Positions 2,976 to 63,843 of a stretch of DNA of 64,000 nt are shown here, piece after piece; the first letter of the stretch is position 1, and each line of letters begins with the position of its first letter. The DNA is taken from the NCBI RefSeq assembly GCF_964213995.1, contig NC_135812.1, forward strand, positions 62,186,001-62,250,000. Direction: 5' to 3'. The DNA comes from Mustelus asterias (taxonomy: Eukaryota). The notes beneath the pieces were generated by a model. That model was not told the origin of the DNA. It was given only the letters and a program-made list of their open reading frames with translations, and did no database searches. The position numbers and the translations under genes were made by a program.

Positions 2976-3127
2976 CCAGAAGAGCTGACGAATGCCCTGG
3001 AGATCAGCAATATCGTCTTCACCAGCCTGTTTGCATTGGAAATGCTTTTAAAGATTCTGGTATATGGGCCATTTGGATACATCAAGAACCCTTACAACAT
3101 TTTCGATGGAATCATTGTAGTCATCAG
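2976..3127 (+). CDS. CACNA1G: Cav3.1 T-type calcium channel coding exon (equivalent to human exon 10), domain II S2-S3
   Basis: ttcag|CCA...ATC AG|gtaaat; 152 nt; [50 protein letters not shown](S), recognisable Cav3 domain II sequence; ends in phase 2. Confidence 0.96.
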
Positions 3128-14666: not shown

Positions 14667-14822
14667 ATATTGACTCAAGAGGACTGGAACAAGGTCCTGT
14701 ACAATGGAATGGCCTCCACCTCTCCATTGGCTGCTCTATACTTCATTGCCCTCATGACATTTGGCAACTATGTTCTCTTTAACTTACTGGTTGCCATTTT
14801 GGTGGAAGGATTTCAGACTGAG
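14667..14822 (+). CDS. CACNA1G: Cav3.1 coding exon (exon 13 equivalent), domain II selectivity filter and S6
   Basis: ccacag|ATA...GAG|gtaaaa; 156 nt; [52 protein letters not shown]; the TQEDW glutamate is the domain II residue of the Cav3 EEDD filter. Confidence 0.97.
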
Positions 14823-16904: not shown

Positions 16905-17592
16905 ATAGAGTCATAGAGGTTTGCAGCACTGAAAAAGGCCCTGCAGCCCATCACATCTGCGCCGATTAAAAACAAACCATCTAACTATTCTAATCTCATT
17001 TTCCAGCACTTGGCCCATAGCCCTATATGCTTTAGTATCACAAGTGCACATCTAAATACTTTTTACTTATTATGAGGGTCTCTATCTCTACCACCCTTTC
17101 AGGCAGTGAGTTCCAGATTCCCACCATCCTTTGGGTGAAAAAGGTTTTCCTCACATCCCCTCTAAGCCTCCTGTCCCTTACCTTAAATCTATGTCCCTTG
17201 GTCATTAATCCTTCCACCAAGAGGAAAAGTTTCTTCCTGTCCACTCTATGCCCCTCATAATTTTATACATCTCAACCATGTCCCCCTTCAGTCTCCTCTG
17301 CCCCAAGGAAAACAACCCCAGTCTACCCAATCTCTCTTCATAACTAAAACTCTCCAGCCCAGGCAACATCCTGGTAAATCTCCTCTCCACCCTTTCCAGT
17401 GCTATCACATCCCTCCTATAATGTGGATTCCAGAACTGCGTGCAATAACCTAACTGTGGCCTCACCAATGTTTTATAGAGTTCCAGCATAACCTCCCTGC
17501 TCTTAAACTCTATGCTTTGGCTAATAAAGGCAAGTATACCATATGTCTTCTTAACCGCTTTATCCACCTGTTCTGCTACCTTAAGGGACTAG
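16905..17592 (-). mobile_element. CR1/HER1 LINE 3' fragment
   Basis: Minus ORFs LYKTLVRPQLGYCTQFWNPHYRRD and FFTQRMVGIWNSLP. Confidence 0.9.
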
Positions 17593-24676: not shown

Positions 24677-24745
24677 GAGGTCCAGAAGCGGGAGGACGCG
24701 AGTGGGCAGTTAAGCTGTATTCAGCTGCCTGTCGACTCGTCTGGG
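24677..24745 (+). CDS. CACNA1G: Cav3.1 cassette exon 14 (69 nt, 23-aa insert in the II-III linker)
   Basis: cttcag|GAG...GGG|gtaggt; [23 protein letters not shown], close to the mammalian exon 14 peptide as recalled ([23 protein letters not shown]); phase 0-0; supports CACNA1G over CACNA1H/I. Confidence 0.93.
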
Positions 24746-30518: not shown

Positions 30519-31734
30519 AATATTTCTAATTTTTAACAAATACCACAGTGTCCAGGGGAATTGTGGATCTGTTTGCTATCGGATCCCAATCTTCTTCTGT
30601 TTCATCTTGCAATAAGACCTTGCAATTGGCCTTGCTTTCAAGCTAGCAGTGTGAAGATAGTCCTCACAGTTGTGACTGAAATACATGCTGAGAAACATTC
30701 TTATTTTATTCCAATGTGTTAATAGGTACATTTTGGCTACATGGTATGCCCTCCGCTCCTACTGCTTTACCCAAGAGAGAACAGAGAACAAGTAAGAAAT
30801 TAGATGGAAGAGAAAGGATTATTTTTTTATGTTGTCATAAATTGCCCAGGCCATTTTACAACAGGCTATGAAACAAAACTGGCATTTCAAAGCAGATAGC
30901 AAGTCAGAGGGTAGTGCAGGATGTTCCAAACTGTACAACAGTGATTGGAAAAAAGGTATCAAGGGAGAATTTTGGATTGTAGTAAACATTTCTCCTGACC
31001 TATTAGCGTAGGCAGCATTATGCAAACCAGTCCTTCCTTTCACAGCAAAGAATAACATCGCCTTAGCCACCTGAATGATTGTCAGTCACCAAGAATACTT
31101 CATTCTTTTCTTCATGACTTACAAAATGATCTTATTGGTCTATGATTACAAAAGAACCTGAAGAGATACAGGTTGTTTGTACATTTGTTGCAGTCTTGCC
31201 TGCCCATCATGTTCTAGACATTTGTGGTCATTGAGTGGCTTGAGGTCCTCCATAATCACAGGTAACTCCAAAAGAAAAGAAGGAAGTATCAAGTATAGAG
31301 GTCCGGCTCGAAGTATTCGGATTAATCACATTTACCTCAATCATTAAAGTTGACTAAATAATTATCTTACACATTCTAGTACAAGAGGCATCAATTGAAA
31401 TGAACTGAGAGAGAATGTAGAGACATTTGGAGTATGTTTTGGAAAACTCAAGTCGCATGAGCAGTGTAGGGAACAGTTTGATTCTCTCATTTCCCCATTC
31501 CTGACCAATTGACACTTGTGTCCTGTACCCATCATGCTTTTGTTCCATTTCTTCTTCTACCTGGACCACAGCAGGGTTCTGCCGACTCGACACAGTCTTC
31601 TCCGAGCACTCACATTTCCTGTGCATACCTTCCAAGTCCTTTAGAACATAAAGGAATGAGCAGTTATATTACAGAATTAGTTTTCCTGGAATGAACTGAA
31701 ATTTTCTTTCATGAACTCTTTTGTTTTTGTTCAG

Positions 31735-31761
31735 AAAGTCGACCAGAAACAAAAACCTCAG
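31735..31761 (+). CDS. Candidate 27-nt in-frame microexon (KVDQKQKPQ) of CACNA1G
   Basis: ctcttttgtttttgttcag|AAAGTCGACCAGAAACAAAAACCTCAG|gtaaat; phase 0-0, stop-free, in a repeat-poor stretch; no transcript evidence available. Confidence 0.5.
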
Positions 31762-33124
31762 GTAAATAATTTAGACCTAGTGCATTCCTTGCCTGCTTGC
31801 CAGCTAAATATAGATGATAGGCTGATGATGACTGGATTGTTGGCTTGTTGCTGCCATGGTGTTGTGGCACTATAGGCATAGAGAGAATCTTGGCGCTCTT
31901 GGGTGTCTGTCAGTTTCTGGTTTGCTACTTTATTCTGTCGCAGCTCTTGTTGGGCTCTGGGTCTGAAATCCTACATCTCTTTGCTTGCTCTCATGTTTAG
32001 ATTACAATAGGCCAAAAGTCACAACCTCCCCCCGTGTCTTTTAATTGTTGCAACAATTATTACAACAAGCAGCCATATGCTATTTATTGTCTACGAAGAA
32101 ATTACAGTTTTGCTTGGCGGAGAGGCACATAGGACGTGGGTCAGCATTCACAACTGTTTAAGGTGTTAGCCTGAATTCACAATGAAGCCTCAAGTCTGGA
32201 GCCAACCCTGTACAACATGCTCCACAAGGAATGCAGATTGGCAAATGAAGATTTTTTTGCAACATGAACTAAATCAGTCCATAAATAAACCTGGTCCATT
32301 GGAGAAGCGAGCAATAGATCATTGGTTGCAATGTTTGTTGGTTAAATCACGCAATATCTCAAACTGAGACCCCAAAGGAGTTGAATTTGGTTATTTTGGG
32401 CCCAAATCCACTGGCATTTTAGATTCATTGATGCCTATCCTTTATAAAAAGTGATGAGTGCACAGAGAGTTACACTTCCTGTTCATGATCAATGGCATTA
32501 TCTATATTCTATCATTGTAATGATTTGATAAGTGTCAAAACTAAAGATGATTTTTCGATTAAAAAAACATTTTCTCAATGACACACATCTCCCCCCTTAT
32601 TTAACTGTTAATGATCTAACAATAGAGTCGGTTACAATGTGATCTAAAGGATGTGAGTGGTGAGCTTGGTGATGAGGTGGTTGGAGAGCTCACTGCACCT
32701 TTACAGCTCACATTCTGACACTTGCACTCCTGTGTATAATTCCAGAGCTTCAATCAATAAAAGTATACGAAAGAAAATGTGTAAAATATTTCCCATTTCA
32801 AGGTGTTGTTATCTAGCTTTACAGCATGATAGGATGCAAAGTGAGTGCAGATGGGAAAGATAGCATGAAGCCAAGCTGCTATGCTGCGATGTGCATGCAC
32901 AGTCTGAAACTTCCTCGCTACGTTTGAGGACCTAGAAAGTCTATCCTTTGATATATAATGAGCGCAAGTGAATGATGGAGCAGATTAATTCTTGTTCAAG
33001 CTTTAGTGTACCGATTTAAACAGCATGGATTCTTTCTGTAGTTTTATCCTCAGTACACACTCTGATATAAAGCTGAATCCAACCATTTTTAAAGCAGCTG
33101 TCCATTATCATTTGACCATGGGAT

Positions 33125-33560
33125 GTCAGCTATAGCTCTGTTGGAAGCCCTCACTTCACAAACTGAAGATTATAGGTTCACGTCCCACCGCAGAGACTTG
33201 TGTACAAAAGATCAAGTTTGACACCGGTGCAGTGTTGAGGGAGAGCTGCACTGTTGGAGGTTTTGTCTTTTAGGTGAGATGCTAAACTGAAGCCTCCTCT
33301 ATCTGTCAAGTGGGTGTAAAAGATCTCTGCACTGTTTCAAGAACGAACAGTGAGGGGCGGGGGGGGGAGTACCCAGTGTCCTGTTCAATATTTATTCCTC
33401 AAGCAATTTCTCTAAAACAAATCATTATCACATCGCTATTCGGGAGATTGTAACTGTGTGCAACTTGGGTGCCGTGTTTCCCACATTACAACAATGCCTA
33501 CACTTTAAAACATTTTCTGAAGTCCTGAGGTCATGAAAGGCATACATGAAGATCTTCATT
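33125..33560 (+). mobile_element. Deu-domain SINE (SacSINE1-like)
   Basis: B box GGTTCACGTCCCAC, Deu-like TGCAGTGTTGAGGGAGAGCTGCACTGTTGGAGG...GTAAAAGATC, L2-like tail. Confidence 0.7.
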
Positions 33561-36043
33561 TTTATGTTAGCCAAGATACAGGGAAGCACTATAAACTCTG
33601 CCTTCTCAACCAAATTCTGTTTTTGTTTTATATTTTCTGAGGTGCAGAGCACAGTGAACGGAAACACAAAATGCCACAATGGTTCCGAAGTTTATTCCAC
33701 ACTGCTGTGGTTATAGGCTGAGTGGCTGGCTCTCCCAACATTACCTGATCTATGGATGATGAGTGCAAATGGTTTTCACTCGAACTACTGACTAGTGAGG
33801 GTCGGGGAGGGGGGTCCTGTGCTGGCTCACTATATGGGTGGAAAGCTGCCAACACCTCCATTTTGCCACACATCTTTGAGATGGTTGTGCCAGAAGTAAC
33901 ATCTGCTAGAAGACACACTAAATTGTGATGCTAGAAGAAGAGGTTATTAAGACGAGGAGATGCAAGTATCGAAAATGAGCAGCTCAGAAGAAAGGTGGTG
34001 TAGCACCAGGAGAGAGGAGAGGGAAGAACTAACATCATCCAACTAGTCCTGTTAATGTGAGGTTTCTTGCTGAATGACACAGTTAGAAAGTCACATTATG
34101 GCCCCCGCCCCTAGTGTCAGTATGCGTGGCTCAAGAACATCTAAATAGTTAAGTGGCATGGGTGGAGGAGACAACAGTAATCTTTACAAAATGTGGAAAC
34201 ATTTAATGCAGACATTTAATTTCATTGTAGTCATTTTCTCAGTCTTCAAAAAAGCTATTTGAACCTTACTCCACAGAGATAATCCCTAATCGACAATAAA
34301 TTAAACCTCAGAAAAAGTGAGTCAAGATGCTACAATTGATAGTAAGAATCAAATAAAATGAAAAAAAGGTTACAGTGGGTTGATACATTTTACGTTCTGC
34401 AAGATGTTTGCTTTTCAACCGGAATTTTGCCTAACTGATAAATAAACTGCCTGCTGTGCTTCAACGGGTGGCATTCTCTCCCAAGCTACATCAGAAGCTT
34501 GTGGATTCAAGTCTCAGAACAGAGATTCAAGTACAAAATCCAGGCTTACTATTTAGAGCAGTACTGAGGGAGTGCAATGCTGTCTTCCTGACAAGATGTT
34601 AAACTGACTGTCCTACTGGGTGTAAAAGATTCCATGGTGCTATATCAAAGAAGGGCTGAGATTTCTGACCAATATTTATCCTTCAACAAACATTAATGAA
34701 AGGTTATGAAATGGATACAGAACTGGCTTGGCCATAGAAGACAGAGGGTTGCAGTAGAGGAGTACTTTTCTGAATGGAAGGCTGTGACTAGCGGTGTTCC
34801 ACAGGGATCAGTTCTGGGACCTTTGTTGTTTGTAATATATATATATAAATGATTTGGAGGAAAATGTAGCTGGTCTGATTTGTAAGTTCGCAGATGACAC
34901 AAAAATTGGTGGAGTTGCGGATAGTGAAGAGGATTGTTAGAGGATACAGCAAGATATAGACCGGTTGGAGACTTGGGCAGAGAAATGGCCCAAATCTCCT
35001 GATAGAGTTTAATCCGGAAAAAATGCATTTTGGAAAGCCTAATGCATGTAGAAATTATACAGTAAATGGAGAACCCTTAGGTGTATTGACAGGCAGAGAG
35101 ATCTGGGCATATATGTCCGCAATCTCTCAAAATGGCAACGCAGCTGGATAAGGTAGTCAGGAAAGCATACGGCATGCTTGCCCTCATCGGTCGAGACATT
35201 GAGTATAAAAACTGGCAGGTCATGCTGCAGCTGTACAGAACCTTAGTTAGGCCTTATTTAGAATATTGTGTACAATTCTGGTCGCCACATTACCAGAGGG
35301 GTGTGGATGCTTTGGAGAGGGTACAGAAGAGGTTTACCAAGATGTTGCCTGGTCTGGTGGGTATTAGCTACGAGGAGAGTTGGATAAACTGGGTTTGTTC
35401 TCACTGGAACGACGGAGGTTGAGGGGTGACCTGATAGAGATTTACTAGATTATGACAGGTATGACAGATAATGAGACAGATAAAATTAATGATCTTCTTG
35501 TGAGGGATCCTCTTGGAATGAGTGATCACAATATGGTTGAATTTCTAATACAAATGGAGGGTGAGAAAGTAGGGTCCCAAACCAGTGTTCTCTGCTTGAA
35601 CAGAGGGGAGTACAATAGGATGAGGGCAGAATTGGCTAATGTAGACTGGGAGCGCAGACTAGTTGGTAGGACAGCTGAGCAACAGGGGCGGATTTCTAAG
35701 GAGATTTTTCTCAGTACTCAGCAAAAATATATTCCTGTGATAAAGAAGGAATGTAAGAAAAGGGATAACCAGCCATGGATAACTAAGGAGAGTATTAAAT
35801 TAAAAACCGATGCGTACAGAGTGGCCAAAACTAGTGGGGAATTAGAAGATTGGGAAAGCTTTAAAAAACAACAAAGAACTACTAAGAAAGCGATAAAGAA
35901 AGGAAAGCTAGATTATGAAACTAAACTAGCACAAAATATAAAAACTGATAGTAAAAGTTTTTACAAATATATAAAAAGGAAAAGAGTAGCTAAAGTAAAT
36001 GTTCGACCCTTAGAAGACGAGAAGGGGGATTTAATAATGGGAA

Positions 36044-37741
36044 ATGAGGGAAACGGCCGAGGCCTTAAACAAGTTTTTTGTGTCGGTCTTCACGGTAGAG
36101 GACACAAATAGCTTACCGAAAATTGACGGTCGTGGGACTGTAGGGGGTGAGGTCCTTAAAACGATTACTATTACTAAAGAGGTAGTGCTTGGTAGGCTAA
36201 TGGGACTAAAGGTAGACAAGTCCCTGAGCCCGGATGGAATGCATCCCAGGGTACTGAAAGAAATGGCAGAAGTAATAGCAGATGCGTTGGTTGTAATTTA
36301 TCAAAATTCGCTGGACTTTGGGGAAGTGCCGGCTGATTGGAAAACAGCTAATGTGACGCCACTGTTTAAAAAAGGAGGTAAACAAAAGGCGGGTAACTAC
36401 AGGCCAGTTAGCTTAATGTCTGTAGTTGGGAAATTGCTGGAATCCATCATTAAAGAAGAAATAGCAGGACACCTGGAAAAAAATGGTTCGATCAAGCAGA
36501 CGGAGCATGGATTCATGAAGGGAAAGTCGTGTTTGACGAATTTACTGGATTTTTATGAAGATGTTAAGAGTGCGGTTGACAGAGGGGATGTGGTGTTTTT
36601 GGATTTCCAGAAGGCGTTCGATAAGGTGCCTCACAAAAGGTTGCTGCAGAAGATTAAGGTACACGGAGTTGGGGGTAAAGCGTTAGCGTGGATTGAGGAT
36701 TGGCTATCTAACAGAATAGTCCAACGCCGGCATCTCCACATCATATCTAACAGGAAGCAGAGAGTTGGAATAAATGGGTGCTTTTCTGGTTGGCAGACTA
36801 GTGGCGTGCCGCAGGGATCAGTGCTGGGGCCTCAACTGTTTACCATATACATAGACTATCTGGAGGAGGGGACCGAGTGTAGGGTAACAAAGTTTGCAGA
36901 TGACACAAAGATGAGTGGGAAAGCGAATTGCGTGGAGGATGCGGAAATTCTGCAGAGAGATTTGGATAGGCTAAGTGAGTGGGCGAGGATCTGGCAGATG
37001 GAGCATAACGTTGACAAGTGTGAGGTTATCCACTTTGGAAGGAATAATAGTAAAATGGACTATTATTTAAATGGTGAAAAATTACAACATGCTCCTATGC
37101 AGAGGGACCTGGGGGTCCTTGTGCATGAATCGCAGAAACTCAGTTTGCAGGTGCAGCAGGTGATCAAGAGGGCAAATGGAATGTTGGCCTTTATTGCAAA
37201 GGGGATGGAGTATAAAAGCAGGGAGGTCTTGCTGCAATTGTACAAAGTACTGGTGAGGCCGCAACTGGAGTACTGTGTACAATTTTGGTCCCCTTGTTTG
37301 CGAAAGGATATATTGGCCTTGAAGGGAGTACAGAGAAGTTTCACCAGGTTGATACCGGAGATGAGGGGGTTATCTTATGAGGAGAGATTGAGTAGATTGG
37401 GCCTGTACTCGTTGGAGTTTAGAAGGCTGAGGGGAGATCTTATAGAGACATATAAGATAATGAAGGGGCTAGACAGGGTAGAGGCAGAGAGATTCTTTCC
37501 ACTTAGAAAGGAAACAAGAACTAGCCTCAAAATAAGGGGGAGTCAGTTTAGAACAGAGTTGAGGAGGAACTTCTTCTCTCAGAGGGTAGTGAATCTCTGG
37601 AATTCTCTGCCCATTGAAGCAGTGGAGGCTACCTCGTTAAATATGTTTAAGACAAAGGTAGATAAATTTCTGATCAATAAGGGAATTAAGGGTTATGGGG
37701 AGCGGGTAAGTGGAACTAAACCACTATCAGATCAGCCATGA
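36044..37741 (+). pseudogene. CR1 ORF2 reverse transcriptase reading frame (565 aa, defective copy)
   Basis: Motifs NYRPVSL, FLDFQKAFDKV, SGVPQGSVLGP and KFADDTK. Confidence 0.9.
36715..36743 (+). mobile_element. 29-nt Penelope-like tail-only insertion
   Basis: AATAGTCCAACGCCGGCATCTCCACATCA between perfect 10-bp TSDs TATCTAACAG (36705-36714, 36744-36753). Confidence 0.9.
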
Positions 37742-38792
37742 TCTTATTGAATGGCGGGGCAGGCTCGAGGGGCTAGATGGCCTACTCCTGCTCCTATTTC
37801 TCATGTTCTTATGTTCTTATGACTGGCATGGACAGAGTGGATAGTCAGATGCTCTTTCCTAGGGTAGAAAAGTCAAGTACTAGAGGGCATAGGTTTAAGG
37901 GGTGTGGGGAAAAGTTTAGAGGAGATGTGCGAGGCAGGTGTTTTTACATAGAGGATGATGAATGTCTAGAATGCGCTGCCCGGGGAGGTGGTGGGAGCAG
38001 ATACGATAGTGGCATTTAAGGGGCAACTAGACGAATACATGAATAGGACAGGAATGGAAGGATACAGACTCTGTATGTGCATATGGTTTTAGTTTAGGCA
38101 GGCATCATGATCGGCGCAGGCTTGGAGGGCCAAAGGGCCTGTTCCTGTGCTGTACTTTTCTTTGTTCTTTGTTATTTGGTTATTATCACATTGCTGTTTG
38201 TGGGAGCTTGCTGTGCACAAATTGGCTGTCGTGTTTTCTCCATTGCAGCAGTGACTACACTTTGCAGAAGCATTTAATCAGCTGTAAAGTGCTTTGGGAC
38301 TTGCTGAGGTTGTGAAAGATGCCATTCAAATGGAATTCTTTATGATGATAAACCTGTCTTACTGACATAAAGAATGTGTGAGACACTTGGCTTTCTGGAA
38401 GAGCTAAAGAGACAGGTGATGCAAAAGAGGAAAAATATAGACACTGGAGTTTTTTTTAAAGTTGCGTTATCATCTTGGGGTTAACAAGAAGCACTTTGTG
38501 CCGCATGAGGAGCTGCTCACAATAAGCATGCTGTAATAATTGTTGCACGGCTGAAGTTAAAATCCATTTCAAAGATTAAAATCAAACTACTTAATGCCTT
38601 TTTCAAAGATGTTTTTCCAATAATCGAGGTAAGGACCTTAATAGTTTTATTCACATTTATTAAATTGCATTTTCTTCTAAGAGTTTAATTTAGCAATGAT
38701 GACTGACAGTGACTGGGAACACTGGGATTGTGCCTGAATTTGGCACCATTCTGTGTCTGTAACTTAAAGCCTCCATTTCATTTTCGCTCAAG

Positions 38793-38886
38793 GGAGACAT
38801 ATCAAAGTCCGACTCCGAGGCCGATTTTTTTTGCCAGAGCCTTGAAGATGACAGTGGAAGCAAAAAGGATCTTCAAAACACCACCT
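38793..38886 (+). CDS. CACNA1G: Cav3.1 coding exon (exon 15 equivalent), II-III linker
   Basis: ctcaag|GGA...ACC T|gtaagt; 94 nt; GDISKSDSEADFFCQSLEDDSGSKKDLQNTT, similar to mammalian GDANKSESEPDFFSPSL; phase 0-1. Confidence 0.9.
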
Positions 38887-41012: not shown

Positions 41013-41200
41013 TGGTGGCCGTGAATGGTCATGTGGACGTCAAAACCAATCTGACGCCACCGCTCATCATCCATACCAATGCCACACCAATGCCAACGCC
41101 AAAGGGGATGCTTTGCGGGGATTCTGCCCATTTGTACAATGAGTCCCGCAGAGGAAGCAACGTATCGATTGATCCCAACTACTATGAACAAAGATCACCG
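41013..41200 (+). CDS. CACNA1G: Cav3.1 coding exon (exon 16 equivalent), II-III linker
   Basis: caacag|TG GTG...CCG|gtgagt; 188 nt; contains the conserved PPLIIHTNATPMPTPK and ends EQRSP; phase 1-0. Confidence 0.92.
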
Positions 41201-43353: not shown

Positions 43354-43800
43354 ACCAGTGCACGTAGCTCCCCCTACGCTCCCTGGAGTACAGCCAGCAG
43401 CTGGAACAGCCGGCGTTCCAGCTGGAACAGCCTTGGCCGCGCTCAAAGCCTGAAACGCAAGCATCAGTCGGGCGAGCGCAAGTCCCTCCTCTCGGGCGAC
43501 GGCAAAGAGAGTTCCGACGAAGGTGATGGGTCGGAGGATGAGAGAACCAGTCGAGCCGGTAGCAGGAAGGGGTCAACCTCTCAGCGCATAGAGTCTCTGG
43601 AGATTAAGGGTTCTTTTGACATTCCCGACACTCTCCAGGTACCTGGTCTTCACAGATCTCCCAGCATCCATAGCAGCAGGATCCCACCAATGGATCGTCA
43701 GGACTGTAACGGTAAAACCTCCCCAGCTGCCGCGCCTCACCAGGTCCACGTGGATGAACAGAGAGCTGAGCTTGAACATACTGAGGATGAAATTGATACG
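43354..43800 (+). CDS. CACNA1G: Cav3.1 coding exon (exon 17 equivalent), II-III linker
   Basis: tttcag|ACC...ACG|gtgagt; 447 nt; TSARSSPYAPWS...SRRSSWNSLGRAQSLKR...SGERKSLLSG...SFDIPDTLQVPGLHR...QDCNGK; phase 0-0. Confidence 0.95.
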
Positions 43801-50277: not shown

Positions 50278-51169
50278 GTAGGTTTTATTTCTCCTACTCA
50301 GTTTTTACTTGATTTGTATGATTATAATGCCTATGAGTAATTTATGAAGGGTTAGAATACTAAGATTTATAATGTGGGATGAACTGGAATTGGTCGCCTG
50401 GTCCTTCATAAAGTCTGCTGAAACGTGTACTTTAAAAATGAACTGGAAAGGTAATAGCAAATCAGAAATAGTCGGCGGTTGAAGAATCACCGGTGTGCCA
50501 CTTTTGATCTGGCTTCATCTGAGATTTGGGCTGAATTTTTGCACACCCTCCTCCTCCGCTAACCCTGAAGTTGGAAACAGAATTGGGCATGGTGGGGCTG
50601 GGGGGAATGATGAAGCAAATGCTTGCAACAGTCAGCTTGAGAGTGTTGTACCCAGTGCCAGCCATTTTAGAGGAGGTGTGTTTCGGACTCAGGGAGGCCA
50701 CTTCTATCCAGGAGGCATTCAGGCAACCAGGCTTGTGAAGAGCCTTGTTCAAGGTAAGTTTGAGAGGACGATTGGAGTCTTTCAGTTGGCCTCCTGTCTC
50801 CCAATGCGACAGCAGAGTTAAAATGCCTAGAGACAGATAGCGAGCAGAAAACTAAGTTGCTCAGGCACCTGGCAGCCCTATGGGCCTTCACCGCATGCCT
50901 GGGTATTGGCACAGCCAACCACCATCCTATTGAGCTATAGAGTCTCCCCACAACCCCATGGTGGTCTGGCTGCTATTTGTTTTTTTATTATATTTTTATA
51001 TATGTTGCTGACAGGGCACCCTCCCAGTTACTTACCTTTTATTTCAATCTGAAGCTGGGAAGGCCTGTAATTGGCCCCTTAGCTTCACGAGCCTGTCCTC
51101 CACCCTTAATTGGACATGGAACCCGTCTCTATGACAATTAAGGGCTCACCCATGTGAAAATCTTAACTT

Positions 51170-51410
51170 TAATGGGGTCTCCCATTTAAGACAAAGATGA
51201 GGAGGAATTTCATCTCTGAGGGTCAGTAGTGTTTGGAATTCTGTTCCTCAACAAGCACTGGAGGCTGAGTCGTTGGATAAATTCAGGGGTGAGTTTGACA
51301 GATTTTTGATAGGGGGCTGGAAGAAAAGTGAAGCTAAAGCCACAATCAGAAGATCCTATCAAATGACGGAGAAGGCTTGAGTGCCTATTCCTGCTCTTAT
51401 TTCTTATGTT
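51170..51410 (+). mobile_element. CR1 3' end
   Basis: GATGAGGAGGAATTTC...TTCCTGCTCTTATTTCTTATGTT. Confidence 0.7.
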
Positions 51411-52066
51411 TAAGCTGTTTTCCCTCAGACGTTGGTTTCTGACCTAAAGGCAAACCTGAATGCTGTTTCCCGCCTCCTTTGTGGAAATTCAGACCCATGG
51501 ATATTGTAAGACTTTTAAACAGGGTGATTCACTTCACCCTATGATCTGGACTTTGTACTAAGCATCAATGACATGAAACATACTTTGGATACAATTTCCA
51601 CTTTCTGTGGGAAATGTTTATTAAGCCACTGAGCAATAGTATGTGCTTACACCGATTGCTTAGTTAGATCCACATGCAGGAGCTCATTTCCAGGTGGTCA
51701 TTCTGCTGAACACATTCTTCTGCAAGACTTCCATGACTGCCAAGTGACACTTCCCTGGCTGTAGCAGCAATGCGCTTGTGAGCTACAGCTTTATTCGCCC
51801 ATTTTGACCCTGGTCCCTTTACCTATAAGAAAATATCTTATCAATCCCACCATGGCAAGACCAACTACATGTGGTTATTTCCTGCTCTGAGCCACAGCAC
51901 TGGTTGTTCTGGTCAAGCAGTGTCTCTTTTTGTCAACATGAAAGCAGAGTTGTATGAAAGGAGAGAAGGTTAGCATTCCCCATAAGAATGGAAGGGACCC
52001 TAGTGGCCTTACAACACAAAATGGTTATGGCATTGCCATATACTTAGTGGCATCTAATCATGGTTG

Positions 52067-52400
52067 CCGGCACAGTGGTTAGCACTGCTGTCTCACAGCT
52101 CCAGGGAAATGGTTTCGATTCCAGCCTTGGGTGACTGTCTGTGTGGAGATTGCATGTTGTCCCCGTGTCTGTGTGGTGCTCCAGTTTCCTCCAAAAGATG
52201 TGCAGGTTAGGTGGATTGGCCATGGTAAATTGTCCTGAGGTGTCCCAAGATGCGTAAGTTAGATGGATTCGCCATGGTAAATGTGTGGAGTTATGGAGAT
52301 ACGGCGAGGGAGAGGGCCTGGGTAAGATACTCTGTCAGAGAATCAGTGCAGACTCAATGGGCCAAGTAGCCTCTTCTGTACTGTAGGGATTCTATGGTTC
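52067..52400 (+). mobile_element. HE1-type V-SINE
   Basis: GGCACAGTGGTTAGCACTGCTG head and CTGTAGGGATTCTATG tail. Confidence 0.88.
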
Positions 52401-52519
52401 AATGATCACCCCATGATTTTGACACAATCGACTTCTGTTGTCTGCTATGGTCAGTGTTGTGACACCACATTAAGGGTTCAAATGAAGTAGTTGTGAGGAT
52501 GAAAAAGTAAGTAAAGGCT

Positions 52520-53438
52520 AGGGGCCGGATTTTCACCATCGAGGCAGGATACTCGAGTCAGGAAATTTCTGAACTTGGCAGACCCAGTTGTATTAAAGGT
52601 TGTTAGGCCCTTAAGTCTTCACCCCTCACACCCCTTCATGCACCCACCTACTTCCCATGCCACATCCCGAGGCAATCTATGAACTAGAACAATAGAAACA
52701 AATAGCCAGACATACGTTTCTCCAGATAGCCTCATTATGAATGCATGACTAAGCTCCAAGACTCATTAATGGATTAGCTCCACCTAACTTCAAAGGTGTT
52801 TGCTTTGATTGATTGACATCTGTACTAGGTTATAATAAGTTATTCTTTCTTTGAACAGTTTCTTTCAATGTCTGTATATTTAGTTGGAAAGGATTGAAGT
52901 GAGCTAGTTATTGATACTATAATCAGTATGTCTGACCTGAATGACACTTCTATAGAATTGTAAGAGCAGCAGTTGCTTTTGAAGCAGATTTTTGAATGGG
53001 AGTATGAAGGGGCCTTGGGGGTCATGGAAGAGGGAATGGGGTTTTGGATGTGGCTTGATGACATGGAGTTGCCTTGCCTGGTGGGAGCAGGGAGGGCGGG
53101 AGGGCATGGAGGCAGCATTGAGGGCATGGATAAGACCTGTTAAAATGGTTATTGAATCGAGACAATGGCTCACATCTGCTCTGAATGGTTGTAAACTACG
53201 TGTCCTTGAAATGCTGGCCTGACTGCGCAAACATTGCAGGAGGGTATGAGATTCCCACCCCAGTAAGGATCCAGCCAGGTAGGGAGTGCAGGGTGTGGGC
53301 TCACTACCTGTACCCTTATCTCATGCTGGCGAAAATTGCCGCATTGGGAATGGGGGCGGGAATCCAAGAATCAGGGCCCACCTACCATTTTTAAGGGTCT
53401 CCGGAATCTGCCCAACTCCGCACAAATCCAACCCCAGG
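52520..53438. mobile_element. Possible longer non-autonomous DNA transposon related to the MITEs
   Basis: GGGGCCGGATTT / AAATCCAACCCC imperfect termini; non-coding interior. Confidence 0.4.
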
Positions 53439-54319
53439 GCTAAAGCATTGTAGTATATTGTTAACATAGCACTTAGCTGTTGGCAATTGCCAATTACTTA
53501 ATAAACTTGCAATAATGGCGTGATTCTTGATTCTTCTGGTATGAAAGCCTGTTGCTTTTAAGGGGATGAAGATTACTCTATTGTACTCATAACTATAACT
53601 ACCAGCAAACTGAACACAAGCTGACTTATTTTACTTTTGACCATGCCTCACTCTCTACTCACGCAATCTTTCATCCCCTGTCAATCTACACTTTCTTTCC
53701 ACCATCATTTCATCCCTTACCAAGCTGACTTCTTTCATATCATTTCTATTAGACAGTTACGAATAGATTCTTGATCCTATGAACAGGATAATGCTTAACA
53801 CACTTGTGTGACATTCCTCTGTGCAGTAGCCTGGGTTGCATACTAAAAGAACAGATTGAGTATTAAAGGTTAATCCACTAACATTACGAATGCTAACGTC
53901 TCCGTTATATTCCTTACTGTGTCATACGGGAGATCATTGATAGATCATTGATAGCCCATGGGCTTTGTGGAATATGAGCATCTTCATTGAGCGAGCAGAG
54001 GCTCACCCAATGAGAAGTGGACAGCAGGAGCTTATAAACCTGCTGCCCAACTTGCACCGGCATTATAGGTCCCGAGGTGTAGACTGTCTAGCTGTTAGCC
54101 GCAGGTGCAGTCCTTCTCTTTGGTACACAATAGAGGTTCTTTGGTGATAGGAAACTAGTGTCTGGCTGAAGTACCAAAGATACTCAGTACTTTAGAACTT
54201 TTTCCCAACTCAAACTGAAGGGTGAGGATTGGAGGAAGATGAAAGGTAGGCTTTAATTTTACATACCAGTTGGAATATTCACATGGGAAAGAAGACATTT
54301 ACTGGGCTTGGGGCAAAGA

Positions 54320-54552
54320 CAGTAAGAAGTTTGACAACACCAGGTTAAGGTCCAACAGGTTTATTTGGTAGCAAAAGCCACACAAGCTTTCGAGGCTCTG
54401 AGCCCCTTCTTCAGGTGCTTCACCTGAAGAAGGGGCTCAGAGCCTCGAAAGCTTGTGTGGCTTTTGCTACCAAATAAACCTGTTGGACTTTAACCTGGTG
54501 TTGTCAAACTTCTTACTGTGTTTACCCCAGTCCAACGCCGGCATCTCCACAT
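54320..54552 (+). mobile_element. Penelope-like fold-back insertion: 98-bp arms, 3-nt loop, tail
   Basis: Arms 54320-54417 and 54421-54518 with 1 mismatch; 13-bp TSD CTTGGGGCAAAGA (54307-54319, 54553-54565). Confidence 0.92.
54421..54457 (+). ncRNA. Minimal type I hammerhead ribozyme motif (mirrored on the - strand at 54381-54417)
   Basis: CAC-CTGAAGA-A-GGGGCT(CAG)AGCCTC-GAAA-GC-TT-GTG. Confidence 0.72.
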
Positions 54553-54939
54553 CTTGGGGCAAAGAACAGGGAATTGGAACTGATTGGATAGCCCTATCAA
54601 TGAGCTGGCGTGGACTTGATGGGCTGAATAGCCTCATTCTGCGCTGTGAGATTGTATGAATAAGAGGAAGTAACAGAATTACAGTAATAAAATTAGGAGA
54701 GATATTAGAAGGAAAAAGATGACTGAGGCAGGACTAACTTCTAGGCTATAATCCCAATGGCATCACACATATTTACCAGCCTGGGTCTTGTCCAATTCCT
54801 TGTTTCCATCAACTGGGAAATTGCAGAGTGACTTCCCAGTTTGACATATGTTTACATTCTTAAAACTAAGAACAAAAAAGGAAGAAATTTATCTTTTTAA
54901 ATAATCAGAAAACGTTGGTTACGAGGCTGTTTTTGTTCA

Positions 54940-57040
54940 GTTATAAAATAGTACCAACACAGAAAGAAACCATGCACTGGAAGGGCAATCTAGTTAATCT
55001 CATGCCCCAGCTCTTTCTCCCTGGCCCTACATTTTTTTTCTCATTCGAGTATTTATCCAATTCCCTTTTGAAAACTGCAACTGAATCTTTTTCCACCACT
55101 TTATCAGGCAATGCACAGAAATTCGAATCACTCATTGTGCAAAAATTGGAGCAGTAGGCCATTAGGCCCATCAACCTTGCTCCTCCATTCAAACAGATCT
55201 TGGCTGATCATTTACCTCAATGCCATTCTCTTAATATCCCTTGATCTCATTAGTATCCAGAAATTTGTTCATTTCTGTCTTGAAGATGTTCAATGATTGA
55301 GCTTCCATAGCCCTCTGGGTAGAAAATTCCAAAGATTCACCACCCTCTGAGTGAAGAAATTCCTCTTAATCTCAATCTTAAATAGGCTGCTGCTTATTCT
55401 GTATCCCCTGGTTTGAGACCCAGGAGAAGCATCCTATCCACATCTTGCTTGTCACACCCTGTAACAATTTTGTAAGTTTCAATTGCATCACCTTCAAAAT
55501 TCTAGGGGAGACAGGCCCACTTTCCTCAATCGCTCCTCATAAAACAATCCCTCCATCCCAGGGATTAGTCTGGTGACCTTCATTGTGCTCCCTCTATGGC
55601 AAGCATATCATTCCTTAGATAGGGAGACCAAAACTGAAAACAGTACTCCTGATGCAGTCTCGCCAAGGCTCTATACATTTGCAGCAAGACATCTTGACTC
55701 CTGTACTCAAATCCCCTTGAGATAAAGGCCAACATATCATTTGGCTTCCTAATTGCTTACTGCAGCTACATGCTAGCTTTCAGTGACTCATGAACAAGGA
55801 CATCAGGTCCCTTTGGACATCAGCACTTCCTAACCTCTCCATTTAAGAAATACTCTGCAGTTCCGTTTTTCCTACCAAAGTAAATAACTTCACACTTATT
55901 CACATTATATTCCATCAGCCATTTTCTTGTCCATTCACTTAACCTTTCATATCCCCTTGAAGCCTCCTTGCATCTTCCTCCCAACTCACATTCCCGCCTA
56001 GTTTTGTGTCATCAGCATGTTTGGAAATGTTACATTTGCTTGACACATCCAAATCATTTATAACTCTACCCTCTCGTACCCTTCAGCCTTCAGAAACAGT
56101 TTCTCTTGTTTGCTAACCCAATCTCCACTTAGCCTTCTCTGCTCCAAAGAGAACAATCCCATCTTTAGCCACCTCATTTATTTCTTTTGAATGAGTCAAA
56201 TTCTGTGAACATCTTTAACATCAAACAGGGGAGCTGACAAATTGGAGATAGATAAATAAAGAGATGTAATTTAGTATGCTAATGAGTATAGGCATAGAAA
56301 CATAGGAACAGGCTAGGCCATTCGGCCCCTCAAACATGCTCCGTTATTCAATAAGATGGTAGTTGATCTGATTGTGGCCTCAACATCACTTTCCTGCCTG
56401 ACCCCCATAAACCCTGGCTCCCTTGTTGATCAAAAATCTGTTTTTCTCAACCCTTAACATTTTCAGTTACCCAGCCTCCCCTTCTGTCTGGGGAAGAGAA
56501 CTTCAAACACCGATGATTGGCTGAAAGAAGAAATTCCTCCTCCTTATCTTTGTCTTAAATCATTATTTTATGTACCCCTAAGTTCTAGATTCCACCATGA
56601 CAGGAATCATCCTCTCAGCATCTACCCTCTCAAGCCCCTTTCAGAACCTTTCATGATTCCATAAGATCACCTCTCGTTCTTCAAAACTCCAATGAGTATA
56701 GTCACAACCTGTTCAACGTTTCCTCATAAGAAATGGGAGCGTGAGTAGGCCATTCAGCCCTTCAAGCCTGCTCCAGCATTCAATGAGATCATGGCTCATA
56801 AGACCATAACATGTAGGAGCAGAAGTTGGCCATTCGGCCCATCAAGTCCGCTCTGCCATTCAATGAGATCATGACTAATCTGATATGATCTTCTATTTCA
56901 AGACCATTTTCCTGCACTATCCCCGTATCCCTTGATGCTTTTAATATGCAGAAACTTATCGACCTCTGCCTGAATATACTCAATGCCTGAGCCTCCACTG
57001 CAACCTGGAGCAGAGAATTCCAAAGATTCACAACCCTGTA
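54940..57040 (-). mobile_element. Cluster of stacked CR1 3' fragments
   Basis: Repeated GTAGGCCATT(C)AGCCC/GGCCC tail signatures near 55150, 56310, 56745 and 56825; minus peptide NLWNSLLQVAVEA. Confidence 0.8.
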
Positions 57041-57636
57041 AGTAAAGAGTAATTAATCAACTGCCCACATTTAGTAATATTAGTGACGATCTTATCTTCA
57101 TTGTATGTGTGTGAGCAGCAAAGTGTCAACTGAGAAGAGGAGACAGATACATGTTGGCTGCCAGTGGGTTAAAGAGAAGCTTGGTCATTGTCCTGAGATT
57201 TGACAACCATATGCAGTTGTTCAAGATCTGAGCCCAAAGTTTGTAATGGATTCATAACACCTATTCTACAACAAATCCTGAAATGTCCATGTAGGTTACA
57301 GTCCATGCATCTACAGTTTTACCAAATTATTATTATACAATTAATGCAATAATTAAAATATCACTTTTATTGAAGATGTTTTACTTATTTATGGCAACAG
57401 TGCTGGAGGGGATTGTATACAAGGTGATGTTTTATTGCTGGGCTTATTACCATTTTGTTAAAATTCAATTACTGTTCTCTGGCAGACATTTAAATAAAGT
57501 GAGAGGGGAAAGATATGCTGTGAAAAGAGAGGAAAGAAATAGCTCTGCTATCAGAAAGGATGAGAGAGCCAACCAGATAAAGCTGGCACTGTGCTACAGC
57601 TTGCCAAAGCCAATTACATTTATTGCCAGTGCTGTA

Positions 57637-57755
57637 ATATGAACAGGGCTCCCTGAGTAACTCTGGGGTCAGCTTTGTTATATGAACAGGGCTCCCTGAG
57701 TAAATCTGGGATCAGCTGTCATATGAACAGAGCTCCCTGAGTAACTCTGGGGTCA
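57637..57755. repeat. 41-43-bp minisatellite x3
   Basis: ATATGAACAGGGCTCCCTGAGTAACTCTGGGGTCA starting at 57637, 57680 and 57721. Confidence 0.92.
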
Positions 57756-59359
57756 ATGCTGGAAAGTTGAAAGACGACACTTTTATTGTCACTGCTGTAA
57801 ATCTCCTCCGCCAGATGTAAATGGGTCAAAGTGAGCAGCTCCATCATGTTGCAGATACATAAAAAGCATCCTTCAGCGGAATTGCTGCATCACGCTACAG
57901 TATGTATGTGGAATTGGATAGATCTGTGCTAAAGCTCTATGATTGACACAGAGGGTGTTAGACAGAATATGCCATGGATCCACATGAGAAATTAGATTGC
58001 GCTATTGCTGCACAGTGCAAATAGGTTATTAACCAAGCCTGCAATATTGCTCCATGGGTACATACCCACAGTACCAGATAATCACACAGATATTTCCCTG
58101 CAGTTTAATCAGAGCATTAGACAGACTGGCAATACCACCTCAGTATAAGCTTTACATCTGGCATTAAACAGGTCCCGCCCAATTAACATTACCTTAACAT
58201 TGATCTGAGTACGTCATGTGTGATGAGATCCCGGATCTTGTTAACAATCCTTGCTTTTTCTCACAGTGGAATCCTGGCGTTCTGAGGTAAACACTCCATT
58301 GCTTCCTTTGACCTACAATTGAAAAGTCAGCTCTGATATTTTCATGCTGGCCAGCACAAATATACTAGTGTTTTTTTTGAAGTTGTCCATGGGCTGCTGA
58401 AAATGCCCATGGGTTGCATCTGTACTTACTACTTCATATTTTGTTTGTGCAGTCAACATTCTCTGATCTCTGGCCCATTGTGTAAATAAAGAACATGTGA
58501 AAAAGCTGAAGTTTAACTAAACATTCTGATGGCTTTTTAATTTGGTATTTGCATGTGAGAGACACACACACAGGGCAAAGTTTTTCTTTTCAGCAAATAT
58601 ACTTTATTCTTGAAATGGGTGAAAGTACTGTGAACAACCATTCAAATTTGACATTACGTAAAGTGTACTGCAATCCAGCTTTCTGTCAGTTACAGGCTGT
58701 CACACTTTGAGGTGCCATACTACACCTAGAATTACAGGTTTTTTACAATATCTGCTTGCATTTCATGTCAAACATTCACTGGTGCATGCAGCCTGAGGGG
58801 TTTCGCACAGGTTTCAGTCCCGCATTGAAAGATGGCTGGAGGCCTTAGGCTGTGGCCTTTCTTACACTTCTGGATCTTGGAATATGCAAGTCTGCAACTT
58901 TCATTCAAGGACAACTCACTGCATTGGAAGACCAGCAGATTTTAGGCAGACTAAAGCGAGCCTTTCACCTTTGATGGTCCTGCAGCAGGAGTTAACGTTT
59001 GTGTCAGTGTACCTCCCTGGGAACAGCCCAAGGGTGCTGTGTAGCAGAACTGCGCAGGATGAACCTCAACAAAACCATCGCATCTCTCCCCGTTTCTTTA
59101 CAATGGCAGATTCCAGAAAGAGGTGGGCGACCATCTGTTCCCCATTCGAAGACGGCGTGCGGTGGTGGAGTCTCCAGGTGCACATGATGGATCTGACAGA
59201 AAAGGCCCTTCTAACCACCAGCCAGTCTACATCTTGCTGCTTGTTGAAAAGCCCTGAAAATGAGGCATTTTGCCAAATTGTAGTCACAGAATAGATACCG
59301 CTGAGGGAAACCAAGATATTCATGCTGCAGAAAGGAATGACCCTCCAATTGTCATTTCT

Positions 59360-59606
59360 TCCAGGGACCCGGGATTGATTCCCAGCTTGGGCCACTGTCT
59401 GCACGTTCTCCCCGTGTCTGCTTGGGTATCCTCCGGATTCTCCAGTTTCCTCCCAAAGATGTACTGGTTAAGTGCGTTGACCATGCTAAATTCTCCCTCA
59501 GTGTACCCGAACAGGCGCCGGAGTGTAGTGACTAGGGGATTTTCAGAGTAACTTCATTGTCATATTAATATAAGCTTACTTATGACACTAATAAGTAAAC
59601 TTTAAA
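59360..59606 (+). mobile_element. Truncated HE1-type SINE with alternative tail
   Basis: V domain then GTGTACCCGAACAGGCGCCGGAGTGT...AGTAACTTCATTG. Confidence 0.8.
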
Positions 59607-60590
59607 CAGTAGCAGGATTGCTAATCAGAAGGCACAGATCTGTGATCATTAACAAAAGAATCAAAGGGGCATTCAGGAGATTTTGTTTTAGGCAGCATGT
59701 TTGTTATAATCTGTAATGCGCTACCTGAGAGGCTGGAGAGAGCGATTCAATAATAAACAGCAGTGACAATAATAAGCTTCCTAAGTGTGGGGAGATTGCA
59801 GTCCAGTCTGTGCCAATGGCTCAGTTTTCTCACTGTTATGATACTTAGTTATTTTCTGGGAAAGTCGTGGCCCTAGTTTATAGTTGAGGTCATCCTCAGG
59901 TTGGGAAAGCAGCAAGTGTGATGGGCCAAACAGTCTCTTCTTTTTCCAAACTCTCTTCATGGGCATTCTTTAGCATCAGTGCGGTTACAAATTTAGAATG
60001 TCAAATCTGAGTAGCAGTCTGCTGAATGAATGTGACTGATTTAGCCCAGTGTTACACCAGTCCATCAGGAACCACTTTTGAGTGGCCTTGATGGAATGAC
60101 TGCCATAGCTCACGCCCTATGATTCAGTATGCTATCCCCTTTAATAAGACCTAATGTGGAACATGCAAAGGGAAAATTATTGGCCTTGCGATTCATTGAC
60201 TTCCCTCCAGCTTATAGTTCAACAGCAGCATTTCCCTGGAAATTCCTCTAATACTTCCCTTGGTGTTTTGAGGGGAATTCTCCATGGTCTGCACGCAAGT
60301 GTCTGATAGTTTGCCAGACTGCTGAAGTCTGTCAATGCCCTTACACAGCGCACTGGATTAGGAAGCCAAGAAGTAATTGCTTGCAGCTGAAGGTTTTCTC
60401 GTGCAAGCAAAACTTTGATGAAACTGTTCATCAGCTCCTTTTTCTGTTACAGGATGAGATCCGAGCTTCAAAAATCTAAAGGACTCTGTTGCACAGCATT
60501 TTCCTCAACACCCTCCACCCCCATCCTCCTGCAAACCGTCCTTCTCTCTAGCTCTGAAGAATGGTCACGTGGACTCGAAATCTTAACTCT

Positions 60591-60706
60591 GGGTGGAATT
60601 TTCCCATCCCTCCCGCCACGGGAATTGTAGTGGACCGTGCAAAGGTCCATTGACCTCGGGTGGGATTTTACAGCCTTGGGGCGAGCGAGGCTGGAAAATC
60701 CCACCC
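60591..60706. mobile_element. Short MITE, subfamily B (PIF/Harbinger-like)
   Basis: 14-bp TIR GGGTGGAATTTTCC / GGAAAATCCCACCC (13/14 match), TCT on both flanks. Confidence 0.75.
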
Positions 60707-61670
60707 TCTATTTTCTCTCTTTTTTTTGTTTCAGATTCCTGCATCCGCAGTATTTTGCTATTTTAAGTGCTCTGTAAAGCTGGGGGAAGTTGCACACTCA
60801 CTGAGGGGGATTTTAAAATGCAGCTCAATGTGGAACAGGACACTGGGGTCCAAACTAGTGCATGCAGCAGCAACATCAGAACAGGACTTGCACTGAATGG
60901 CATCAAAATGAGTCCAAACCATGAAGGAGGAATAAGCTGCATACGTTTAATTTCAGCTTATTTCTTCAGCCCATCCTGTATTGTGAAGGATCGGCATCAG
61001 AAACTCCTATCGTCAGCATGCTTCAATGGTTCCAGCTAGCTCCTGCCTTTTCCCAAAGCTTTTATAAGCCGCTCTCCTGCATTATGTTCTTACATTCTTC
61101 ACGGAAGAACTGCTTATTGAATCAACTGGAAAAAAAATATTTTCTTTAAAAACTGCTACAGTAGCAGGAAGGCGACAGTAATCACAGAGTGAAGCTGGGC
61201 TTGAAATAAGTAAAGTTGGCAAGTGATGGGGGCAGCCTTCGAGTCATGAATTTACAATCTAAGCATTTTGCTACATCCTGTTGTTATTAAACTGACAGCC
61301 AGTCACAAAGAGCTGTTTCCCTTGTCACCATGGTGATAATTCAATCATTGGGGCTAGGATTTGGGACCACCACATAAAGCAGGCGAAATTGAGCTCCGGG
61401 CTGGGGAACTTTGGAACCGGGAGCCTGGGAATCTCTCGGCAATTCCTTACCCCAAGTGAAATTTGGAGTAAAGTAGCTCATGATCACTTTGTCCCATCAT
61501 TATTATGGTTAGCCTGAACATTTCTGCTTACGATATCAGCCTGATGCATTCAGAAGCATTCCTCTGATATTTTGTTGCTATCATTAAACTGATTATTTAA
61601 ACACAAACGGATATTGTATCAGTGAGCATTGCATTTATTCACTGTGGTACCTAGTTGTCTATTAGAAGTT

Positions 61671-61803
61671 GGGGGCGGGATTTTCCATTCCCGCCAGCAG
61701 CAGGATAAGCCTGCTTGGGCAAGACAAAAATTGGGAGAGCAGTCAGTCTTCCCATCCCGCCCGCAGCGATGCCTGATGCTGGTCAGACCGGAAAATCCCA
61801 CCC
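61671..61803. mobile_element. Short MITE
   Basis: GGGCGGGATTTTCC / GGAAAATCCCACCC termini. Confidence 0.65.
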
Positions 61804-61840
61804 GTGTTGTCTTGAGTATTTTTTTTCACGAACACAGATC

Positions 61841-62220
61841 TTTGGCATAGTGGTAATATCAATGGATTGGTTATCCAGAAACCTAACCTAATGCTCTGGG
61901 GACATGGGTTCAAATCCCACCAGGGCAGCCGGTGGAATTTAAATGCAGTTAAGAAAATCTGGAATCTAAAGCTCGTCTCGGTGCTGGTGACCATGACAGT
62001 GTTGTCATAAAAGCCCATCTGGCTCACTAATGTCCTTTAGGGAAGGAAATCTGCCATCCTTACCCGGTCTGGCCTACATGTGACTCATAACCCATAGCAA
62101 TGTGGTTGATTCTTAAATGCCCCCTGAAATGGCCGAGCAAGCCACTCAGTTCCAAGGTAGTTAGAGCTGGGCAACAAATGCTGGAGCAGCCAGTGACATC
62201 CACATCCCCTAAAAGATTAA
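61841..62220 (+). mobile_element. tRNA-derived SINE (second family)
   Basis: TGGCATAGTGG A box, GGGTTCAAATCCCAC B box, shared body. Confidence 0.8.
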
Positions 62221-62606
62221 TTATTAACAGGCAGGAAAAGACCGACTGGTGCATCAAGCCCACCTCACACCATGACAACCCAAACATTGTGGCTAAATAT
62301 TCCCTTTCTCTTCCAGTTGCATATTCCGTGATAGCAACATTGGGACTGGATTTTTAGGCCCTGATGGGTCGAGTATGGTGGAGCAGGAATTTTGATCACT
62401 GGCCCACTTGCTAATTCCCCAGTTCCAGCCTATCCATTGTTTTCATTTCGCAAAAGTTGGGGGTGACAAGGGGGTACAAGGCTACCTACCCACAAAGGAC
62501 TGGTAACCACTTAATTATGGCTTGAGGCCAATCGTCAGACGCCACCCCCAGACCTCCTGAGGTACCAGAAACTAAGCCAGCTGTCCGAAGCTAGTTGTTT
62601 CAGCTG

Positions 62607-63090
62607 TGATGTGGAGATGCCGGCGTTGGACTGGGGTGAACACAGTAAGAAGTCTCACAACACCAGGTTAAAGTCCAACAGGTTTATTTGGTAGCAAATA
62701 CCATAAGCTTTCAGAGCGCTGCTCCTTCGTCAGATGGAGTGGAAATGTGCTCTCAAACAGTGCACAGCGACACAAAATCAAGTTACAGAATACTGATTAG
62801 AATGCGAATCCCTACAGCCAGCCAGGTCTTAAAGGTACAGACAATGTGGGTGGAGGGAGCATTAAACACAGGTTAAAGAGATGTGTATTGTCTCCAGACA
62901 GAACAGCTAGTGAGATTCTGCAAGTCCAGGAGGCAAGCTGTGGGGGTTACTGATAATGTGACATAAATCCAACATCCCGGTTTAGGCCGTCCTCATGTGC
63001 GCGGAACTTGGCTATCAGTTTCTGCTCAGCGACTCTGCGCTGACGTGTGTCGTGAAGGCTGCCTTGGAGAACGCTTACCTGAAGATCCTA
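62607..63090 (-). mobile_element. 5'-truncated Penelope-like retroelement (ORF C-terminus, hammerhead, tail)
   Basis: TSD TTTCAGCTGTGA (62598-62609, 63091-63102); minus frame 63087-62947 DLQVSVLQGSLHDTRQRRVAEQKLIAKFRAHEDGLNRDVGFMSHYQ*, with the E...GLN pattern of a GIY-YIG C-terminus. Confidence 0.85.
62701..62737 (-). ncRNA. Minimal type I hammerhead ribozyme motif
   Basis: Reverse strand CCAT-CTGACGA-A-GGAGC(AGC)GCTCT-GAAA-GC-TT-ATGG. Confidence 0.75.
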
Positions 63091-63271
63091 TTTCAGCTGT
63101 GACAGACCAGTGCCTCAGGCTTTGAGATGATTCTCTGTCTGCCTCTGCTCCAGTCTTGCCCCCATCCTAAAATACATTAAAATTGACAACAGCAACAAAA
63201 ATGCTTGCTGAAGGCCTCATAAAAGAAAGTAAAGCAAAACTACATCGAGAAATATAAAGAGAGAAGCGAGT

Positions 63272-63430
63272 TAGAATAGAATCCCTACAGTGCAGAAGGA
63301 GGCCATTTGGCCCATCGAGCCTGCACTGATCAACAATCCCACCCAAGCCCTATCCCCGTAACCCCACATATTTACCCTGCTAATCCCCCTGACACTAAGG
63401 GTCAATTTAGCATAGCCAATCCACCTAACC
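63272..63430 (-). mobile_element. HE1 SINE 3' fragment
   Basis: AGAATCCCTACAGTGCAGAAGGAGGCCAT...CCAATCCACCTAACC. Confidence 0.8.
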
Positions 63431-63843
63431 GGCTAATCGCCTAACTAGTTCTACCAACTTGAACTATGCACTGGCAAGTAAGGGCCAGAATCTAAAATAT
63501 CACAACAGCAGTGTCCAATTCTACTAAAAATGTTGGTTCTCTTGATCAAACGTAGAAATGATGAATACTCTTCCAGAGTGAGGCAGTTCTGGAATTCGAC
63601 CAGTGAAAAATGATTAACAAGTGATAAACAGCATTAAGTCCGACTGGTGTTTGTTTAAAGAGTGGGGAAGTGGGGAAAGTCCCATCAAGTGAACTGTCAG
63701 ACTAAAACAATCAAGAGACCATCACAACGTTTGAGAAAGACTGTAAGCTTTTCAGTTGTCATGCATTTGGATGAGAAGATTAGTCAGTGTAAAAAAGAGT
63801 AAGAGTTAATATAACTGAAGAAATGTTCCTCTATCTATTGAGT

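Follow-up and report, generated by a model that had tools for sequence, protein, structure and literature searches.

To our knowledge, maps of T-type channel splicing come almost entirely from human and mouse, in which exon 14 is the sole cassette reported at the site considered here. This exon has been listed among the modulators of gating; the 23-aa insertion that it contributes to the II-III loop has been named insertion e (PMC7503748, in the portion used here), and its skipping is described as region-specific in a part of a study on mouse cerebellum (PMC2696442). In the snail, Cav3 exon 25c consists of 9 aa and shifts gating, according to the excerpt of PMC3376122. Microexons have been defined as cassettes of 3-27 nt, and MBNL has been described to enhance exons from the downstream intron (both from the same excerpt of PMC4978528). 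Microexons dependent on SRRM3/4 carry a UGC in 74-79% of cases, and their pyrimidine tract is set back from the AG (bioRxiv 2024.09.17.613571, as excerpted). Our analysis of a shark locus makes it rather likely that an alternatively spliced CACNA1G microexon adds nine hydrophilic residues at the start of the II-III linker, as a probable length spacer tuning Cav3.1 gating.

The window, that is, the whole stretch of 64,000 nt analysed here, contains CACNA1G exons 10-19, and these ten exons were mapped in order by translation and tblastn. Exon numbering follows the mammalian scheme, as in the original prediction made on this DNA. On the forward strand, translation and tblastn place exon 13 at 14667..14822, the end of which we take to lie just past helix IIS6, exon 14 (the 69-nt cassette encoding the 23 aa of insertion e) at 24677..24745 and exon 15 at 38793..38886, while tblastn places exon 16 at 41013..41200. 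Exon 17 (43354..43800) was the query that fixed the identity of the gene: its best named matches are alpha-1G, with 84% identity to a Chiloscyllium model against 51% to Latimeria alpha-1H. Judged by its sequence, the gene is CACNA1G (Cav3.1), coding for alpha-1G rather than alpha-1H or alpha-1I. A tblastn search gave no further channel exon in the final 13.7 kb (50278-64000), so that the next intron extends beyond the window end. Elsewhere in the window, the long open frames at 35449-36108, 36895-37817 and 17198-17588 are multi-copy and have the look of retrotransposon fragments.

Between exons 14 and 15, the forward strand holds 27 nt (31735..31761) between an AG and a GT, with no stop codon and in a frame-keeping phase (0-0), which encode KVDQKQKPQ; we annotate them as a microexon on the basis of sequence, insert match and splice-site score. 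The splice signals named in the original prediction are in place: a U-rich tract abutting a CAG acceptor within the region of the 3' splice site (31681..31734), the nine codons themselves, and a closing CAG followed by a 5' splice site GTAAAT (31762..31767, donor score 10.8). The 3' splice-site region includes an AG-free zone of ~54 nt, and no UGC occurs within 93 nt. The donor hexamer is, as had been claimed, common to exon 10 (2976-3127), and the proposed phase 0-0 fit agrees with exons 13 and 14 ending, and exon 15 beginning, in phase 0. The surrounding zone is indeed repeat-poor, with neither self-BLAST nor tandem repeats over ~4 kb (30519-34736), and the stretch has one match in a search of the 3.68-Gb genome; a repeat origin of the segment is thus ruled out. 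Readings of 3 nt and 45 nt from the same acceptor were rejected for their weak donors.

The search for KVDQKQKPQ-like inserts in chondrichthyan isoforms that had been called for was successful. Both flanking exons are present in 25 of 30 cartilaginous-fish Cav3.1 models; in 6 of these exon 13 is joined to exon 15, another 15 insert exon 14 and nothing else, and in the remaining 4 exon 14 is followed by nine further residues. The four inserts, each after exon 14, are KDEEEHRPQ in Chiloscyllium punctatum X1 (XP_072414330.1), KVKQEQRPQ in Heterodontus francisci X6 (XP_067914016.1), KVEEEHGPQ in Stegostoma (XP_048410857.1) and KVKVGQEPQ in the stingray Hemitrygon akajei X1 (XP_072882846.1). KVDQKQKPQ is identical to them at 3-6 of 9 residues, and cartilaginous-fish inserts are identical to each other at 3-7 of 9 and to bird inserts at 2-4 of 9. 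Isoforms with and without the insert occur within one species, namely C. punctatum (X1 versus X3) and Hemitrygon (X1 versus X2), P0121 and P0253 being the forms without it. Since the inserts are too divergent from one another, copying by protein homology is unlikely. Given the way in which RefSeq isoforms are built, the relatives' inserts are likely to be backed by transcripts.

For scoring splice sites, the ten mapped exons of the window served to train a matrix; the set being small, the scores are rough. By this measure 31735-31761 comes first (23.6 against 17.5 for the next) when all 1,038 AG..GT segments that are 3-51 nt long and free of stops are compared across the introns from exon 13 to exon 15; its acceptor score of 12.8 and its donor score lie within the range of the training exons (6.1-14.0 and 6.5-11.5, respectively). 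Compared with the four cartilaginous-fish inserts, KVDQKQKPQ ranks first among 8,549 stop-free nine-codon windows of the exon 14-15 intron (25.0 against 14.8), a ranking that imposed no splice-site requirement, and again first among 60 open AG-27-GT candidates, where the next scores 9.5. Since the splice score and the peptide score draw on different information, the same 27 bases were chosen twice. The segment is very likely a real in-frame cassette microexon, and the 27-nt exon is very probably spliced in Mustelus asterias. The second-ranked short candidate (17.5), a 3-nt AG-NNN-GT at 17103-17105 with a good tract and a GTGAGT donor, probably arose by chance, because none of the collected proteins has an extra 1 or 24 residues at this junction.

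A junction-targeted protein search (898 matches from 940 candidates, with the best 120 taken, cluster representatives only and a cut-off of 46 bits) gave 110 new proteins. Among the matches listed, 108 of these combine exon 14 with an insert of 9 residues; 106 are bird proteins, from 33 species by a hand count of the names, and 2 are from turtles (Chelonia and Emydura). With exon 15 (31 aa) as query, a search of cluster representatives gave no match, the query being too short. The turtle and bird inserts, of the KGKLGVQEQ type, likewise run from K to Q over 9 residues at the same junction. Altogether, 133 of 438 collected proteins have an insert, 128 with exon 14 and 5, all from birds, without it. 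Several bird species have models of isoforms both with and without the insert, and all four combinations of exon 14 and the microexon occur in bird models. The proposal that the microexon combines with exon 14 is therefore supported, by these bird models as well as by the 4 of 25 cartilaginous-fish models. The further proposal that exon 13 may be joined directly to the microexon holds for five bird models and for none of the 25 cartilaginous-fish models. In some bird models (e.g., P0010, P0019 and P0024) the exon 15-16 junction is shorter, which may reflect an alternative acceptor or a modelling error.

The original prediction knew of no such exon in mammalian CACNA1G, and indeed none of the 16 mammal models in which both flanking exons are present has the insert. 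In 6KZP, the human chain has exon 13 joined to exon 15, and the mouse exon 13-17 amplicon, in the part of PMC2696442 used here, came only in forms of 623 and 692 bp (without and with exon 14, respectively), with no extra 27-nt form. The microexon has likely been lost in mammals. The suggested search in fishes succeeded for the cartilaginous fishes but not for teleosts (0 of 21 models, the longest carp and Megalobrama isoforms, X1, included). The insert was also absent from 3 coelacanth, 1 bichir, 4 alligator and 15 ratite models and from the lepidosaur models examined, and all these counts are to be read bearing in mind that optional exons get missed in thinly annotated species. An insert is worth ~18 bits in bird pairs, and models from placentals, carp and coelacanth reach 38-50 when it is absent; consequently, insert-bearing versions of these should pass the 46-bit cut-off, and none did. 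The ratites (P0371 and P0386-P0399, from ostrich, emu, kiwi and cassowary) lack the insert, unlike turtles and other birds, through either loss or an annotation gap. Exon 14, for its part, has 22 residues in ray-finned (teleost and bichir) models versus 23 in sharks, coelacanth and tetrapods.

As to regulation, the original prediction pointed to YCAY motifs upstream of the exon and a YGCY cluster downstream. YCAY is the NOVA motif; its upstream count is at chance level (8 in 250 nt versus a window mean of 4.9, with 16% of windows reaching 8) and only 2 occur downstream, so that neither the upstream cluster nor NOVA-type regulation could be upheld. YGCY, the MBNL motif, occurs 9 times in the 250 nt downstream against a mean of 2.9, a value reached by 0.9% of windows; the cluster is thus present, but the motif was chosen after the sequence was seen and, as 1 of 40 motif-by-region counts, the excess fails correction for the 40. 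The motifs lie at +29 to +225, three of them in tandem at +29 to +40, and five flanking exons have 2-4 downstream YGCY each. The cluster is the only signal of note among the motif counts, and from it we annotate a candidate MBNL-type element at 31790..31989 on the forward strand. We tentatively propose that MBNL, rather than SRRM3/4, would promote inclusion of the microexon by acting on this downstream cluster.

We consider it unlikely that the exon is instead a usual SRRM3/4-dependent neural microexon. Its 27 nt, the preserved frame and the neuronal channel gene would all suit such an exon, as would the AG-free zone, and 21-26% of SRRM3/4-dependent microexons have no UGC in the excerpted data (bioRxiv 2024.09.17.613571). 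However, the lack of a UGC in the 93 nt before the acceptor, with the nearest at -113, does not make for a typical SRRM3/4 exon. Moreover, the pyrimidine tract touches the AG and the acceptor score lies within the range of real exons, and cacna1g is absent from two supplement files of a zebrafish srrm3 study (PMC13281805), although teleosts may lack the exon altogether.

Turning to function, with inclusion nine polar residues would follow immediately on exon 13 or, where exon 14 is used, on its 23 residues, and by likeness to exon 14 this nine-residue spacer may alter Cav3.1 gating. The insert is 9 residues long in every case, its net charge lies between -2 and +2, and no residue other than the first K and the last Q is invariant. 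Such a pattern, in which length and ends are kept and the interior changes fast, suggests a spacer just after helix IIS6, in a linker that is expected to be disordered, and the shark inserts fit a spacer better than a binding motif. In birds, on the other hand, the insert hardly varies, and its sequence as such may have a role there. We give even odds, arguing by analogy, to the microexon acting as a spacer that affects gating or the accessibility of regulatory sites located farther down the linker.

The main rival to a gating effect is near-neutrality: the exon would be real, yet a low-level, tolerated, frame-keeping insert in a loose linker, with no selected effect. This may draw on the sequence of relatives. 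The stretch 30900-32700 is covered by contigs of two other organisms, here called X17 and X18; X17 aligns in one piece with 45 differing letters (~97.5% identical over 1,801 nt). Among the 40 of 43 changed places listed for X17, the AG and GT are unchanged and no indel falls near the exon, and the two differences inside the exon both change a residue (K5E and P8L, worked out by hand), in keeping with a fast-changing peptide. X18 covers the exon as well, and no indel is listed close to it. X12 has no match in this stretch, and X14, which is near-identical to the window and may come from its source, was left out of the comparison. In the flanks, the listed X17 differences number 12 in 31485-32011, where 12.6 are expected, and 3 against 8.8 in 31367-31734 (P 0.025, for a region picked post hoc); intron conservation around the exon is not clearly raised. 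In addition, 21 of the 25 cartilaginous-fish models are without the insert, as are the mammal, teleost and coelacanth models examined.

Against near-neutrality, the exon has kept its length, phase and position across sharks, ray, turtles and birds in spite of its variable peptide. Moreover, 105 of the 106 bird inserts among the matches listed, as well as later ones, are one peptide or little different from it, and in strength the splice sites equal those of constitutive exons. In our judgement, an exon without selected effect is rather improbable. Two further places in the alignments deserve a mention. The 236 nt at 31367-31602, upstream of the exon, have no listed X17 difference and are possibly a conserved element, a post hoc choice that is not evident in the piece-level counts of X18. 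At 32044-32048, ~280 nt downstream, both X17 and X18 have ~10 or more additional bases, which the window lineage has probably lost.

We consider it quite likely, from the comparison of the peptides, that the shark exon shares its origin with the turtle and bird exon. Their intron, length, phase and first residue agree, and the combination of a first K with a last Q occurs in none of 315 control AG-27-GT peptides. Compared over their full length, shark and turtle/bird inserts resemble each other more than 98-99% of the controls do, and the stingray insert, which shares 4 of 9 residues with each of the three turtle/bird types, is the sole bridge between the groups. The contrary reading, that the cartilaginous-fish and turtle/bird exons arose separately in the same intron, has its own arguments. 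Apart from the stingray, the interior seven residues are alike only at chance level (19-29% of the 315 controls match the bird inserts as well), and the terminal Q follows from the CAG donor. The insert is also missing from the coelacanth, bichir, alligator, lepidosaur and ratite models, although models built for species with little RNA data overlook optional exons. On balance, two origins seem improbable to us.

In its fullest form, a common origin would make this an ancient jawed-vertebrate Cav3.1 microexon, which cartilaginous fishes, turtles and neognath birds would have retained and mammals and teleosts lost. Under the control of MBNL and not of SRRM3/4, it would form with exon 14 a four-state length switch, helix IIS6 being followed by 0, 9, 23 or 32 residues, and so provide gating variants that mammals lack. 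We regard this whole as doubtful.

Lastly, it is very improbable that in this species the segment is silent or resembles an exon by chance, for although a search of sequencing runs with exon 17 gave no RNA-recorded run among the matches listed, the segment holds the top rank in two independent tests (splice score and insert match) and its signals are intact both in the window and in X17.

The exon is already part of automatic models from at least four cartilaginous fishes, two turtles and many birds. The original prediction had called it undescribed, which agrees with the literature searched, where we found no published description and no match to the bird peptide as a phrase; nevertheless, RefSeq predicted isoforms contain the insert, and the exon is therefore not unseen. 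Subscription journals, VastDB or the supplement of PMC12871342 could hold a description. The chicken exon may be among the 347 microexons counted in the part of that chick preprint used here (PMC12871342), and CACNA1G is absent from four supplement files of PMC8187152. If true, a second cassette in sharks, turtles and birds doubles the variants of the proximal II-III linker, and the microexon offers an example of length outlasting sequence. The surprise is limited, as databases already contain the exon and microexons in channel linkers are common.

Compared with known systems, the closest counterparts are the inserts of the Heterodontus, Chiloscyllium, Stegostoma and Hemitrygon models, which share junction, length and phase with the window exon and likewise have K first and PQ last; they come from automatic models only, and differ from the window peptide in interior residues and net charge. 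The KGKLGVQEQ-type insert of birds and turtles shares the junction, the length, the first K and the last Q, and in birds it is likewise alternative with or without exon 14. Its interior is identical to that of the window peptide at 0-1 of 7 residues, and it is near-invariant within birds whereas the shark versions vary widely. SRRM3/4 microexons are 27 nt or less and frame-keeping, as here; unlike them, the shark exon has no nearby UGC, a strong abutting tract and a poorly conserved peptide, and is unseen in mammals. Cav3 exon 25c (7-9 aa) is also a short insert in a cytoplasmic linker, but it arises from a tandem donor site in the III-IV linker, whereas the shark microexon is a cassette in the II-III linker. 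Exon 14 is, like the microexon, an in-frame cassette and sits at the same place in the II-III loop; it is 69 nt long, and its sequence, unlike that of the microexon, is strongly conserved all the way from sharks to mammals.
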